From an uncultured bacterium (GTDB lineage Bacteria; Patescibacteriota; Minisyncoccia; Phycocordibacterales; UBA9973): a stretch of DNA of 33,466 nt. The position numbers and the translations under genes were made by a program. Of this stretch, positions 2,712 to 28,181 are shown piece after piece. The notes beneath the pieces are model-generated. The model searched no databases, had not been told where the DNA came from, and saw only the letters and a list, made by a program, of their open reading frames with translations. Positions within the stretch are counted from its first letter, which is position 1. Each line of letters begins with the position of its first letter. The DNA is taken from positions 1-33,466 of the forward strand of contig CAIOXR010000054.1 in NCBI GenBank assembly GCA_903862375.1, read 5' to 3'.

Positions 2712-3665
2712 TTAAAGTTTAATAAATTTCATCCCTATTTTAGTTCAACCTGTTTTATCTATCTCTACCTCTATTATCCAACCTCCTATAGTATTATCTA
2801 GGTTGAATCTTTTAGCAAGTAGATTCTCTTTTAAGAACGCTCAAGGTAAAAAACTATGTATCTTACGATAAAATACATATAGTGCGGTATGTCGGTGACC
2901 CGCAGCAAACACATTTGGTTGGTTCTTAGGATCTATATTCTCTAATAACTTCTGTATTTTATATGATTTTGCGTAACTCATCCCTCAACCACCATGATGT
3001 AGATTGATATCAACTCCATTAAGTTTAATCCTAGCATCATAGAACCCTAGATTGATTAAATCTTTACGTACTTCACTTATAGCTCTACTTATATCTCAAC
3101 CAGTCTTTTTTAGAAATGACTCATCATGATTTCCGCCAATAAAGTAAGTATCTAATCATATATTAGGATAACTTTTGATTATATCTTCTAGTTGTGAATC
3201 AAAACCTATTTTGTCTTGTTCATAAATCTGACCTGTATATACACTATCTCAGTCCACTATATCTCATCAGTGCATAAAACATTCTACTCAATCAGATTTC
3301 GCTATATCATAAAATTCTCAAAGTTCGTTTCTAGCACACTCTTTATTACCTAGATGAGTATCGCTAACTAATCAGAACTTTAAATATCATGGTTCTCATA
3401 TAACTTTTTCTATATTTTGTTTAGAATCTAATTTTAATCTATAAAGTATCTCTTTAAGTTGTTCTGGAGTATATTGTTGTATCAAATCTAATTTCTTTTT
3501 CTCTTGACTAGAAAAAACCTCTTTTATCTCCTCCTTTTTGTATTGATGTCTTGCTACACTAGTCTTTCCTACACCTAAGATTTTTGCTATCTCTCTCTGA
3601 CTTTTTCACTCAGATGATAACTGCTTTATCTCGTTAATCTTTCATTGTTCAAGAGGTTTTTGCAT
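2712..3665 (-). CDS. HTH domain fused to a calcineurin-like metallophosphoesterase
   Basis: 317 aa, frame checked. N-terminal HTH is SQREIAKILGVGKTSVARH. Metallophosphoesterase motifs are LVSDTHLG, MHGGDIVDG (3249-3275; three of its Gly are TGA), GGNHD, HHGG and GHRH. Confidence 0.9.
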
Positions 3666-3728: not shown

Positions 3729-3944
3729 TTATTTAGGTAGGTTATTTCCTCTCGAATAATATTCACTTAATTTTATGAGTGAGCTTATAGCTGCACCTAA
3801 TACAAATGCTGTGGTGATTTCCTGACCAGACTGTACTGCTGTGAGTAGAGTGATAGCCATAGGTAAAAAGAAAATAGCGATGTTCTTTAACAGACTTTTG
3901 ATGTCTATCCAATTTAAACTGTTTTCTGGTGATGTTGTATCCAT
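3729..3944 (-). CDS. holin-like small membrane protein (2 TM)
   Basis: 71 aa from the track, with a genuine TAA stop. Hydrophobic segments are IAIFFLPMAITLLTAV and AFVLGAAISSLI. U-rich motif upstream. Confidence 0.7.
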   Translation of the reverse strand: MDTTSPENSLNWIDIKSLLKNIAIFFLPMAITLLTAVQSGQEITTAFVLGAAISSLIKLSEYYSRGNNLPK

Positions 3945-3978
3945 AATATATAATTAAGGAATAAAAACTACTTTAATC

Positions 3979-4115
3979 GGGTGACTGTGGGATTCTAACC
4001 CACCCTATCACATAGGCTCGTTTAACTACTACTGAGTTCTTACTCTTTTAGCTTATGATAGTTTCAGCTCCTTTTCGTTTGGCTTTGGCTTAAGATTTTG
4101 CCCAGAGCAGTCACC
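3979..4115 (-). ncRNA. tRNA-like element (acceptor stem plus T-arm mimic around a 105-nt insert)
   Basis: On the minus strand, GGTGACT (4115-4109) pairs perfectly with AGTCACC (3986-3980). Just upstream of the latter is GTGGG-TTAGAAT-CCCAC (4003-3987); the discriminator is C (3979). An internal helix is CTATCA/TGATAG. It sits in the 172-nt gap between two CDS and starts 2 nt after a TAA. Confidence 0.55.
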
Positions 4116-4116
4116 A

Positions 4117-4359
4117 TTATTTTACTACTTGTGATACCATCGCTCATATAACGGCAACAAGTATGATTCATATCAACCCTTTGATTACCCATTCTGTCCA
4201 TTTACTAGCATATTTTCTATCAAGTTTATCTAACAGGTTATCTAACTTAAAATTAGTTTCTTTCTGACATTCTTTAATTTCTGCGATGTCTTTACTCATC
4301 TGATTCTGTATTACTGATAAAGTTGTTAGCTTCTCTATTTGGATACAAGGTACTGTCAT
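4117..4359 (-). CDS. membrane-anchored coiled-coil protein (holin/spanin-like by position)
   Basis: 80 aa. Track ORF 4168..4359 extends through two TGA to TAA 4117, which creates a C-terminal TM helix: WVIKGLIGIILVAVIGAMVSQVVK. Confidence 0.7.
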
Positions 4360-4414
4360 AGTATGAGATAAAAAATAAATAATGTCGGAGAGGATAGAAC
4401 CCTCCCCTCTATGT

Positions 4415-4970: not shown

Positions 4971-6860
4971 TTATGCTGTTGTTGGTACTGTTGTTGCTCC
5001 TGTATCTGTTAATACAATAGCCCCATTTACTAGAGATATTTTCCAGTAATTAAGACTTGTTCAAGTAGATTTAAGATATAGATTTCAACCTGTAACTACC
5101 AATCAACCAGCACTATTTAATGCTAATATATCGGCATATCCTCCTCCATTATTATCGTAACCCCAATATAATGAACCTGAAGTCGTAGCTCCTGATGTAG
5201 GTCTTACTTCATTTTTAAAATTAATAGTATTATCCGCTGCAGTAACCGTTGTATTCCACGCTCTTGCTGTAAATATTTGAGCTGGAGAATATCTAACTGG
5301 GACACCTGCCGTAGAAGCCGTATTACTTCTTATTAAAACTCCTGTATATGACGTAGTTGTAAGTCCTGCTCTATCTGATACTATCGTTCCAATAGCATTT
5401 ATGCCGCCTCTACCTGATACCGCTCCATCAAGAGTTATGTCACCTTTTATAGTAACGCCACCGTTACTACCTAAGTTCAGTATTTCTACATATCCACCAC
5501 CGTTATTGTCATATTTGAAACTTAATGAACCAGATGTAGTAGTCCCTGAAACAGGTATTACCTCTTGTCTAAAGTTAATTGAATTATCCGCAGCTGTTGC
5601 AGTTGTATTCCAAGCGTGTGCTGTGAAATCTAAAGTTGGTGAATATCTTACTGGTACACCTGCCGTTGAAGCTGTCGTTTCTTGAGCCCAAAATCCCACT
5701 GTAGAAGTAGTAGTTAAATTAGACCTATTTGAATAAACTCCTTGTATTCCAGTTATTGCTCCTGAAGCACCCAATGCACCAGTAAAATATCCAGAACCTC
5801 CAGAAGATAAATTAAACGCATTTACATACGCTGCACCAGCTCTTGAGTGGTCTATATAAAGCATATTAGAACTTGTAGCCGTTCCACTTGTTGCCTGATT
5901 ATATATTCTCCATTCACTAGCTTGGTCTACTGTCGTATCGGTTGTCCATCTGTGACCTCTGAAGTGAAGTTCTGGGGAATATTGAACGGTATTTACAGCG
6001 TCCGAAGCTGTGTCGTTGGTAAGAAGTAATCCAGCTGTATTTGTTGTTTTTATGTTGTTGTTATATATGGTCAATAATCCAGCAGATGATAAAGACATCC
6101 AGTCTGCGTAGCCACCACCATTATTATCGTAAGCCCAGTATAAAGAACCTGAAGTAGTAGCTCCACTAACTGGTCTGACTTCTTGTATAAAGTTAATAGT
6201 ATTAGAAGCTGGTGTCGTTGTATTCCACGCCCTACCTGTAAACCTTAAAGAAGGAGAATACCTAACTGGTGTTCCTACTAATGCTGCAGTACTTGAATTA
6301 AGTACAACCCCATCTGATGAAGTCGTTGTTAAGTTCGCTTGGTTAGAATTAAGAACTCCAGGGATACTTACACTTGAGCTATCTACATTAAATACCGATG
6401 CTGACGCACCACCATCTACTGCTCTACGTATATAAAACGAACCACCAGTATTTACTAAAAAGTAATTTGAATAGTGGTCTGTTGATGTCCAGTAATGAGC
6501 CTTAAAATCTAAAGTTGGTGAATTTTGAGCTGTATTTACTGCATCTGAAGCTGTATCGTTTAGTAAAAGTAATCCATCAGTATAAGCTGCAAGCAATCAA
6601 GGTCTGCTTATCGTAGGTGCTCCGCCTGTGATGGTTTGGGGCGTAGACTGATTAAGTTTTAAGAATACTGTTGGTGTAGTACCTGAGTCAAGCCAAGCGT
6701 TTGTTCCTGTATCTCGTACCCAAGTGGTATCTGTTGACCCTACAGTAGCGAACCATCAAGCCTGTCCAACAGGATAAGCTGCTGCTAACGCCGCATACGT
6801 AGCAAAATACCCTTTATCGTTGTAACTTCATCCTCAAGCATTTCATTTGATAAATTGCAT
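4971..6860 (-). CDS. tail fibre / receptor-binding protein with internal repeats
   Basis: 629 aa. Track ORF 5103..6596 extends both ways through TGA (ATG 6860, TAA 4971). The unit ..VRYSP..F..RAWNTT....N.INF..EV.P.SG.TTSGSL..YDNNGGGY occurs three times. TASDAVNT.Q.SP.L.F..H.WT occurs twice. Confidence 0.9.
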
Positions 6861-15763: not shown

Positions 15764-16612
15764 TTAAATCATATTTAGTAGGAAATTTGCATTAGTTGTT
15801 GGTGCTACATATTCTACCATAGTTCGAGTACCGTCTGTTGTAAATGTATGTAATGTATAAGCACCAAATGTAGATACCGCTCAACCTGTACTAGATGTAC
15901 TTACTCAATCAGAACCATCAGTCTTATATGCTATAACTACTACTCAATCTCATCATTTAGCTCAAGTTACAGTTCAACTATTTCAACCTCATCATCCTCA
16001 TCCTCATCAAGTTCAATCTGTTCCTGCTGTACCATTAGTAGTATTACTTCATCAAGCTCATCATCAGTTAGCTGCTGTTCACGCAGTTCAAGCAAAATAT
16101 ACTCAACCTCAACCACCTCAAGCGAACCATCCACTTGCTCATACTCCTGTTCAAAATACTGCTGAATAATTTACTCCTGCTCATCAGTTACCTGCTGTTC
16201 AAGTAGATGCGTTTGTTCATACGCTTCACATACCTCCTCATCCTCATCAAGGGTATGGACTTGATGTATTATTTACTCATCAATTATATCATGGATTACT
16301 AGTACCTCATATCTTTCAAACTGTACTTCATTCTCAAGCTCATCATCAACATCAACCATTTCTACCATTATTATCATTAGCACCAGAACCACCTCAACCT
16401 AATCAAGTTAATGTGGAGAACGTAGTATTTAATCAATATCATCATGGTATTCAAGCTGGTGCTTTAGTTCAAGCTCATCAAGTTCATATATCTATTGCGT
16501 ATGCTTGTGCTGTTACTGTATGTGCTGCAGAATAAGTTGCTCATCAAGCTCCTCATCCTCATCAAGAACCTCATCATCATCATCATACTACTAATGCCTT
16601 AATCGCTGCCAT
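15764..16612 (-). CDS. glycine-rich domain protein (tail-fibre associated)
   Basis: 282 aa, MAAIKALVVGGGGGGSGGGGGAGGATYSAAH...GDGVVVIAYKTDG... There are 94 Gly, and 65 of them are encoded by TGA. Checked codon by codon. The gene is invisible to standard-code ORF finding. Confidence 0.9.
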
Positions 16613-17474: not shown

Positions 17475-17478
17475 TGAA

Positions 17479-17628
17479 TTAGTAAAAAACTAAAGGTAAT
17501 CATTGTTGGTCTACTAAAAGATTATCATCCATTGTTAATATGAAAAGATTATCTGTAGTTATTACTTCTACATAATCATACATAAGTGGTGTTTCTGAAT
17601 ATGTTGTATTATTTTCTCAGTAATACAT
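17479..17628 (-). CDS. hypothetical small protein
   Basis: 49 aa, MYYGENNTTYSETPLMYDYVEVITTDNLFILTMDDNLLVDQQGLPLVFY. First gene after the terminator, with motif TTTTTACTTAA upstream. Confidence 0.45.
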
Positions 17629-17644
17629 TAAATGGTAATTTTTA

Positions 17645-17677
17645 AGTAAAAATCAGGGAAGTTTTTTAGGCTTCCCT
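17645..17677 (-). terminator. rho-independent terminator
   Basis: Stem agggaag (17655-17661) / cttccct (17671-17677). On the minus strand it is followed by gattttt. Confidence 0.65.
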
Positions 17678-17682
17678 AATTA

Positions 17683-17991: not shown

Positions 17992-18013
17992 TATTTAGGT
18001 TTTAGTAATAAAA

Positions 18014-21130: not shown

Positions 21131-21244
21131 CTGTAATAATAAGATATAAAATGTGCCTTATATCAGGGCGGGAAGACGAGTGATTATATACGTGGGTAGG
21201 ACTGATGCCCTCCCCAACTATATAATGTCTTAACAACTTTCCGC

Positions 21245-25020: not shown

Positions 25021-25039
25021 ATATATAGTAGTGATAAAA

Positions 25040-27128: not shown

Positions 27129-27195
27129 ATACATACTTTACTAGCTACACAATCTCTATCTATTCAATACCTTTTTATTCTTTATTCTTTACAAG

Positions 27196-27462
27196 ATGGA
27201 AACTCCAAAAGTTTATGAATTAACACTAGTCAACAGCAGAAAATCATTCTATGGTAAATGCAGAGTAATAGATGATTGAGTAACTGCAAAACTCCAATCC
27301 TATTCAACTATTGTTGCTGAATTTGACCACGGCACAAACAAAATGAAAGTAAATGGTCGATATTCAATGACAACTGCTAGTCATATAAATTCCTTTCTAG
27401 TGCATTTCTGATTTGATACTGCTACCAAAAACCAAATTGAAACACGAAACAATGCGAAATAA
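27196..27462 (+). CDS. hypothetical early protein (SFYGK...SYsT.VA family, function unknown)
   Basis: 88 aa, METPKVYELTLVNSRKSFYGKCRVIDDGVTAKLQSYSTIVAEFDHG...TTASHINSFLVHFGF. Two in-frame TGA. U-rich motif at 27170-27190. Confidence 0.75.
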
Positions 27463-27558
27463 TGCCAGTCCCTACCGTTCCCGCTAATCTCTACACGCTT
27501 GTAGAATTGGTGAGGTGGTAGTTAGTGCCACTTATATCTTTTTATATTCTTACAACCT

Positions 27559-27990: not shown

Positions 27991-28010
27991 ATATCTTTTT
28001 ATCCTTTATA
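27991..28010 (+). promoter_or_regulatory. U-rich pre-start motif example
   Basis: ATATCTTTTTATCCTTTATAcattacaagATG. The core TTTTAT lies 17 nt before ATG 28020. Confidence 0.5.
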
Positions 28011-28019
28011 CATTACAAG

Positions 28020-28181
28020 ATGGAACGCTTAAACAACAAACAACTCCATGTTATGGTTTTATCTGATGAATTAGCTTGAATATGCTCTGATGTTGCTGAT
28101 TGAGGTATTGAACGAAAAGATTTACCTTGAATACTTGAGGCTCGAGTAGAAAAGAATTGTACTGACCAATACAGAGACTAA
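28020..28181 (+). CDS. hypothetical small protein
   Basis: 53 aa, MERLNNKQLHVMVLSDELAGICSDVADGGIERKDLPGILEARVEK... Confidence 0.55.

Follow-up and report, generated by a model that had tools for sequence, protein, structure and literature searches.

A packed phage operon that leaves 172 nt between two lysis genes raises the question of what fills the gap, and whether it is an RNA with a role of its own or a piece of DNA with none. We have analysed this locus within a stretch of 33,466 nucleotides (contig CAIOXR010000054.1, from here on the window), which belongs to a tailed phage, as confirmed by a terminase and a major head protein. The gap, between the genes of an XhlA-like lysis protein and a holin-like protein, is filled by an element of 137 nt (3979-4115, minus strand) that a preliminary description had presented as a tRNA-like RNA. 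The surrounding 26 kb form a minus-strand operon, with gaps that are mostly shorter than 30 nt, and because it lies inside such a tightly packed set of same-strand genes the element is almost certainly transcribed. The answer that we favour, tentatively and with considerable doubt, is that the lysis-cassette transcript carries a genuine structured RNA, the tRNA-like end of which serves as a signal for processing or stability.

On the minus strand, positions 4115-4109 read GGTGACT and are perfectly complementary, over 7 bp, to AGTCACC (3986-3980). In the RNA this gives an acceptor-like stem (5' strand GGUGACU, 4109-4115; 3' strand AGUCACC, 3980-3986), which can be seen in the sequence and in the computed pair probabilities, with U4116 at position -1 and the single base C3979 after the stem, in the discriminator position. 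A T-arm-like hairpin of 5 bp and a 7-nt loop, GUGGG-UUAGAAU-CCCAC (3987-4003; GTGGG at 4003-3999, TTAGAAT at 3998-3992 and CCCAC at 3991-3987), abuts the 3' strand of this stem without a gap. All 12 pairs of the resulting minihelix (7 + 5, contiguous) are Watson-Crick, and the loop fits the general T-loop pattern UUNRA, with an A in place of the C56 of tRNA. The trailer 3' of the discriminator position is GAUUAAAG, and CCA is not encoded. The closing stem encloses a body of 105 nt (4108-4004), and in the minimum free energy (MFE) fold the whole element becomes a four-way junction composed of the closing stem, two arms, the T-like hairpin and one trailing base. Arm 1 (4067-4108) is a GCUCU/GGAGC stem around an A-rich loop of 35 nt and follows the closing stem with zero linker, and arm 2 (4005-4061) is made of CUAUCAUA / UGUGAUAG, then AGCUA/UAGUU, with an 11-nt bulge and an apical GAGU-AAGA-ACUC hairpin. 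The inner helices CTATCA/TGATAG (4061-4056 with 4010-4005) and GAGT-AAGA-ACTC (4045-4034) are both used in this fold. These helices, the 7-bp stem, the T-arm, the discriminator base, the length of the body and a frame GCC AAA ... AGC TAA inside it had all been listed in the preliminary description, and all of them are present; it was equally right that there is no anticodon arm and no G3:U70 pair (3:70 is U-A), and that C56 is replaced by A.

This geometry is unusual, about a 1-in-80 event per window. The chance estimate comes from dinucleotide-preserving shuffles of the whole window, with both strands scanned. For a loose version of the geometry (TTNNA loop, G-U pairs allowed) 1.28 matches are expected per window, for an intermediate one (TTNRA loop, at most one G-U pair per stem, at least two and at least three G-C pairs) the expectation is 0.013, at least one match appearing in 1.2% of the shuffles, and for a strict one (only Watson-Crick pairs, loop closed by G-C) it is 0.0077, with 0.5% of the shuffles producing a match. 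The intermediate geometry was also sought in 261 kb of related phage DNA and gave no match. The composition is atypical as well. The GC content of the element, 43.8%, is in the top 1.5% of segments of 137 nt, compared with 32.5% for the whole window and 14-25% for most other intergenic gaps, and its T content is 19.7% versus 38.5% in the other gaps. In the predicted fold the unpaired bases are 56% A and 14% U; in an AT-rich genome, a structured RNA is usually recognised by such a combination of GC-rich stems and A-rich loops.

We favour a structured RNA because the geometry is rare, because the twelve Watson-Crick pairs are intact and because the element combines GC-rich stems and A-rich loops in an AT-biased genome. 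The reading is further backed by the leader motif of the holin gene, which has been left intact (the 3' end of the element lies 8 nt upstream of the holin leader), and by the existence of structured intergenic elements elsewhere in this phage. Under it, the module would be part of the late transcript from the minus strand, lying after the XhlA-like stop codon and before the holin leader, and the closing stem would stack on the 3' hairpin, with its T-loop-like UUAGA, to form the minihelix half of a tRNA. Provided that the two helices do stack, the ca. 12 bp of acceptor and T stems with their single-stranded leader and trailer make the stretch a substrate of the minihelix class for RNase P and RNase Z. 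The U at -1 and a trailer devoid of CCA suit the bacterial forms of both enzymes. The element would most likely act in cis and signal punctuation or stability: the tRNA-end-processing enzymes of the host would recognise the 12-bp minihelix, RNase P cutting between U4116 and G4115 and RNase Z, or an equivalent, after C3979. With these cuts the XhlA-like and holin messages would become separate, no longer coupled in stability or translation, and a stable RNA of ca. 137 nt might also be released. The analysis shows the geometry and how rare it is, the unusual composition, the location on the transcribed strand and the lack of the element in relatives; from these we infer the fold in vivo, the cleavage and the effect of cleavage on the expression of the lysis genes. 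A more elaborate form of the same idea appears improbable to us: a phage tRNA mimic of a novel type, from a virus of candidate phyla radiation (CPR) bacteria, made of the minihelix plus two unrelated arms, which would be excised by RNase P and RNase Z, possibly be tagged with CCA, and then set the timing of holin expression or serve in trans as a decoy for host factors recognising tRNA acceptor ends.

How far the likeness to a tRNA extends can be seen by direct comparison. With a canonical tRNA the element shares the 7-bp acceptor stem and its single discriminator base, the 5-bp/7-nt T arm abutting the 3' acceptor strand, the U at -1 and, in the loop, U54, U55, R57 and A58. It differs in its body of 105 nt, which has neither a D arm after a 2-nt linker nor a 5-bp/7-nt anticodon arm with U33, two unrelated long arms being found instead; in the junction linkers, 0/5/1/0 nt in the fold versus 2/1/4-5/0 in tRNA; and in the loop UUAGAAU, which departs from the T-loop consensus UUCRANY, with C56 for pairing to G19, by having A at that position. 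The tRNA likeness is limited to the acceptor/T minihelix, and the other arms are unrelated to D or anticodon arms. The label of tRNA-like therefore fits the closing stem, the T-arm-like hairpin and the trailing base, which occur together more rarely than chance would have it and on the transcribed strand of a late operon, but it does not fit the rest of the body.

Other RNAs come closer in logic than in sequence. RNase P is known to process phage and operon RNAs with tRNA-like ends, such as the C4 antisense RNA of P1 and P7, the stable RNAs of the T4 tRNA cluster and sites within polycistronic mRNAs. Like these, the element would be a phage-borne and non-decoding RNA in an intercistronic position, with an acceptor-like helix that could direct tRNA-end enzymes to it; unlike them, it shows no sequence relationship and encodes no CCA, and its processing is a proposal. 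In the tRNA punctuation of mitochondrial transcripts and in the mascRNA of MALAT1, RNase P and RNase Z cut at a tRNA-shaped module within a long transcript. We propose the same logic here, in that cuts at the module define the ends of the flanking RNAs, whereas those modules are eukaryotic and full cloverleaf-like and the present one is tRNA-like only in its minihelix half. The bacterial Y RNA YrlA (Chen et al. 2014; PMC4201824) is likewise a non-coding partial tRNA mimic of ca. 100-130 nt, some examples of which are phage-encoded, whereas its ends form the Ro-binding helix and its tRNA-like part has a canonical T loop and a D loop. Rfam matches the element to no Y RNA, and no Ro orthologue is visible among the annotated genes of the genome.

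The element is present without change in every one of the seven contigs sequenced from this phage that cover it; over their full lengths these contigs match the window at 99.93-100% identity and, being near-identical, carry no information on variation. In the related loci that were fetched (numbered here with an L), a homologue of the XhlA-like gene is followed in L001 by a spacer of 26 nt and another downstream gene; in L002 a 26-nt spacer separates a different upstream gene from a gene of holin type (a likeness read by eye, with 32% identity in the alignment, that tblastn did not confirm); and in L017 the upstream gene, which matches in architecture, lies only 21 nt from a holin that is 70% identical. 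Since the relatives have only these spacers of 21-26 nt, parsimony has the element inserted in this lineage, where the junction is mosaic, and we think that it looks like a lineage-specific insertion. In L017, which is the closest relative with the same holin, positions 1630-2031 immediately after the holin hold a partly GC-rich stretch of 400 nt with no called gene that is not similar to the element.

Searches for homologues beyond these loci gave little. Neither blastn of the element against 50,697 phage records (nothing significant) nor exact matching of the terminal 18-20-mers of both ends against one genome each of 185,579 species and 2.9 million viral contigs (zero matches) found a counterpart. 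A protein search with the holin returned only the same phage and one 69% relative, the latter lacking the element, a search with the XhlA-like protein returned only itself, and a holin alignment scan of viral contigs confirmed nothing. Relatives of the nearby metallophosphoesterase (26-67% identity) were recovered from viral, metagenome and genome collections, none of them with the element. A covariance model of the element (R1), run over 290 kb, had its best match (21.5 bits) in a tRNA-Ala of locus L009, a result that is circular because L009 had been fetched by the T-arm pattern. The same model gave a weak match at 4472-4576 of L003 (minus strand; 11.8 bits, E 0.25-1.7), with a GUGU-AAGA-ACAC / AAACGAGCC similarity; we rejected it as a homologue and attribute it to chance, as it falls inside a conserved reading frame of 76 amino acids and its pairwise p of 0.013 fails given the size of the search.

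Several of these results, and of the folding results, weigh against the structured RNA that we favour. The element is absent from L001, L002 and L017 and from all other fetched loci too, and as no homologues were found there is no covariation. An event of ca. 1% per window is to be expected by chance now and then when many windows are scanned. The fold of 144 nt has an MFE of -35.5 kcal/mol (z = -1.93), only modestly better than shuffles. The T hairpin itself has a pair probability of 0.82-0.96 in every flanking context tried; that of the closing stem runs from 0.13 to 0.99 with the amount of flank, and from 0.13 to 0.73 once flanks are added. In a context of 321 nt the closing stem is absent from the MFE fold, which with a z of 0.08 is no better than shuffles. 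The opposite (plus) strand folds slightly better than the sense strand (-37.9 kcal/mol, z -2.67, one of 200 shuffles as good). Finally, an extension of the closing stem, GGUGACUG..UGGG with CCCACAGUCACC, can be read in the sequence as an alternative pairing that competes with the T hairpin.

It is nearly as likely as the favoured reading, and so likewise a possibility to be held with doubt, that the element is a functionless insertion with a chance resemblance to a tRNA end, that is, ca. 140 nt of foreign or scrambled DNA at the lysis-cassette junction, such as a scar of recombination or what is left of a lost gene. The junction is indeed mosaic (XhlA-like gene only in L001, apparent holin type only in L002, both in L017), the element is confined to one near-clonal population, and the detectors of RNA families, tRNAs and tmRNAs (transfer-messenger RNAs) are all silent. 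Matches to the loose geometry are frequent by chance, the closing stem varies with its context and the fold in context does no better than shuffled sequence, and a 1% event will surface in a large scan. What such an origin explains less well is that the tighter geometries turn up in so few of the shuffles, and that a GC content of 44% and twelve Watson-Crick pairs have survived among spacers of 14-25% GC, since both should decay without selection unless the insertion is recent. The split between A-rich loops and GC-rich stems is not expected in random DNA either, and neither blastn of the phage records nor the exact-pattern scans found a source sequence.

A less probable origin, and in our view an unlikely one, is a decayed or disrupted tRNA gene in which insertions have overwritten the D and anticodon regions, the acceptor and T stems having been kept. 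The spacing of acceptor stem, T arm and discriminator is exactly that of a tRNA, and ARAGORN in intron mode offers a solution that spans precisely 4115-3979, as a tRNA-Thr(AGU) with an intron of 56 nt. That solution appears only at 80% of the threshold and has to be forced, with two of four D-stem pairs, a mismatched anticodon stem, an unpaired 'variable' region of 17 nt and a non-canonical intron site. These breaks, together with the sub-threshold score, also led us to reject an intact tRNA with an intron. With default settings ARAGORN finds no tRNA and no tmRNA in the window, and Rfam gives nothing at gathering scores and, at E <= 10, no tRNA, tmRNA, Y-RNA, ribozyme or riboswitch. The identification as a tRNA or as the tRNA-like domain of a tmRNA has consequently been given up: the programs do not back it, the 3:70 pair is U-A and the reading frame is wrongly placed. 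Random decay, moreover, should also have hit the 12 pairs of the minihelix, and tRNA genes were found in none of 50 related or same-phage loci scanned. The rare T arm does occur in a genuine phage tRNA, the tRNA-Ala of L009 that is the best covariance-model match, with the circularity noted above, and the T-arm 18-mer of the element lies inside no predicted tRNA in the set of 185,579 species. The L009 gene (5285-5363, plus strand) belongs to an unrelated phage of standard code and is a predicted tRNA-Ala(UGC) with G3:U70, the T arm GGUGGGUUAGAAUCCCAC and A56 for C56, which shows that the A56 loop variant can occur in a genuine tRNA.

The only Rfam match at E <= 10 is to DUF805b RNA (RF02914), at 4037-4092 on the minus strand, with 15.4 bits against a gathering score of 35.6 and an E of 0.13. 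AAGCC..GCU..AAAAGAGUA is common to the two, and the match requires an insertion of 28 nt in the hairpin; being sub-threshold, it was treated as chance. We also considered and rejected a phage attachment site (attP) over the 3' end of a tRNA or tmRNA gene. There is no host tRNA match, GTTAGAATCCCACAGTCACC, used to test for an attP core, has no match in the same 185,579 genomes, and no integrase can be recognised in the gene list, nor an integrase domain among the called genes, of the phage genome of ca. 40 kb (a contig of 40,017 bp).

About equally unlikely is a non-autonomous mobile element akin to miniature inverted-repeat (MITE) or palindrome-associated (PATE) transposable elements, the 'acceptor stem' being its terminal inverted repeat and the hairpins structures recognised by a transposase in DNA. 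The terminal repeats do exceed 7 bp (8 + 4 bp, GGTGACTG(ctc)TGGG versus the reverse-complemented 3' end GGTGACTG-TGGG), the element looks cleanly inserted between a stop codon and the next leader, and its composition is atypical for the genome. An 8-bp inverted repeat within 172 nt is expected by chance, though, in ca. 20% of cases (a rough figure, 172^2/2 pairs versus 4^8), there is no target-site duplication at the ends, neither the window nor the sampled rest of the genome (L052, L053) holds a second copy or a related repeat, and the terminal 18-20-mers have no exact match in the genomes and viral contigs searched.

Very unlikely, in our estimation, is a tRNA mimic acting in trans, either a small tmRNA-like or otherwise aminoacylatable or CCA-accepting RNA or a decoy against host toxins and nucleases recognising tRNA acceptor ends. 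The minihelix is intact, and a minihelix is the minimal substrate for the CCA-adding enzyme and several other acceptor-end enzymes; the genome also encodes at least one protein of counter-defence type (with an Acb2_Tad1_hairpin domain), but nothing links the element to any defence system. As in the tRNA-like domain of tmRNA (SsrA), acceptor and T stems surround a long insert with a short GCC-started frame, here of 13 codons. Yet the element lacks the G3:U70 pair, the pseudoknots and P2, and measures 137 nt versus roughly 260-400 nt for tmRNA. The GCC...TAA frame runs from arm 1 into arm 2, not through a single-stranded region after a pseudoknot, and outside any P2-enclosed pseudoknotted body in which a tag frame is expected; the putative tag AKAKRKGAETIIS has no hydrophobic degradation-tag ending. 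ARAGORN -m, a check that had been proposed together with Rfam, reported no tmRNA gene even at 70% of the threshold, and no Rfam tmRNA family was matched at E <= 10, so that a tmRNA was rejected. An antisense small RNA from the plus strand, or a site acting at the level of DNA, is just as improbable: for all its better fold, the hairpin would there abut the 5' strand and the tRNA-like geometry would be gone, the A-rich loops would turn U-rich, the plus strand shows no promoter-like site near 3900-4000, and the surrounding 26 kb are a minus-strand operon.

A hidden coding sequence was rejected as well, there being three to five TAA or TAG stops in each of the three sense frames under genetic code 25, and so was an ATG overlapping the upstream stop, which opens a frame of only 25 codons with no -22 motif (see below).

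Were the element functional, no structured RNA would have been described before it from a phage of code-25 bacteria (Gracilibacteria or Absconditabacteria), and it would also be a case of tRNA-end-processing enzymes punctuating a phage lysis operon, which would bear on the timing of lysis in hosts that do not use initiation of the Shine-Dalgarno type. Were it due to chance, its value would be methodological: a perfect acceptor/T minihelix is found in ca. 1% of AT-rich windows of 33 kb, and because of this such a minihelix should not be called tRNA-like unless it is conserved.

The most secure new information concerns the context, namely a phage in which TGA encodes glycine, a lysis cassette with an XhlA-like protein and a holin, and a distinctive TTTTAT leader motif at -22. 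The map of the genome, which is ca. 40 kb long, is circular. Only 40% of the window is coding under the standard bacterial code, and a packed operon emerges once TGA is taken as a sense codon. The metallophosphoesterase motifs DxHxG, GDxxDG and GNHD appear only if TGA is read as Gly, and as they need Gly at TGA this codon must be glycine (code 25); ten long open reading frames contain 159 TGA versus 44 TGG codons. This codon usage points to a probable host among the Gracilibacteria or Absconditabacteria (for code 25 and these groups see PMC10746230). A protein of 282 amino acids (15764-16612, minus strand), extremely rich in glycine, with long GGGGG runs and many of its Gly codons TGA, is invisible under the standard code.

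The motif TTT[TA]AT is found near -22 in 25 of the 47 genes, versus a background of 5.9%, for example at 3961-3970, 17992-18013 and 25021-25039. It often takes the form TAGTTTTAT, the TAG or TAA of which is the stop codon of the upstream gene. No Shine-Dalgarno-like site lies upstream of any gene in the window, and the motif may be a signal for initiation or re-initiation of a non-Shine-Dalgarno kind, or a promoter element.

In the lysis cassette, the upstream gene (4117-4359, minus strand) encodes an XhlA-like lysis protein of 80 amino acids that combines a coiled coil with a membrane helix at its C-terminus. The protein has a match in PHROG 1193 'hemolysin' (E 1.5e-4) and is homologous to the L001 protein (E 4e-5). 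Two of the codons are TGA (Gly), and it is only because TGA is a sense codon here that the gene really ends at the TAA of 4119-4117. Just upstream of the gene, at 4387-4407 on the same strand, there is a terminator-like hairpin with a U-rich tail. The downstream gene (3729-3944, minus strand) encodes a two-helix holin-like membrane protein of 71 amino acids with a weak match to Pfam LrgA (E 0.003), a match that its 69-70% identical homologue P0002 shows as well, also weakly. Its leader (3945-3970, minus strand; TAGTTTTTATTCC...) has the TTTTAT motif at -22 intact. Directly after the holin gene comes one for a protein of 317 amino acids (2712-3665, minus strand) that combines an N-terminal helix-turn-helix with a calcineurin-like metallophosphoesterase, and whose relatives at 26-67% identity are found in many metagenomic phages and in a few contigs of archaeal metagenome-assembled genomes.

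Among other intergenic structures in the window, a gap of 208 nt (17475-17682, minus strand) holds a strong terminator-like hairpin and, behind it, a U run; further ones are a long GC-tipped hairpin (21131-21244, minus strand; z -3.0) and a hairpin in the early region (27463-27558, plus strand; z -2.1). A tail-fibre-like protein of 629 amino acids (5112-6270, minus strand) has three to four internal repeats of ca. 118 amino acids, and its gene contains direct DNA repeats spaced 354 and 615-618 nt apart, with 69-85% identity. The remaining ca. 6.5 kb of the phage genome encode the protein with the Acb2_Tad1_hairpin domain, of 67 amino acids and of the sponge type that counteracts CBASS (cyclic-oligonucleotide-based anti-phage signalling system) and Thoeris, and an HNH_3 protein. 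In the early region, a repeat of 35 nt with a TTTTTAT motif and the 3' end ACAAGATGGAA occurs twice on the plus strand (27167-27201 and 27991-28025, 89% identical); its first copy runs into the ATG of an early open reading frame, and the pair may represent a repeated early promoter or leader.

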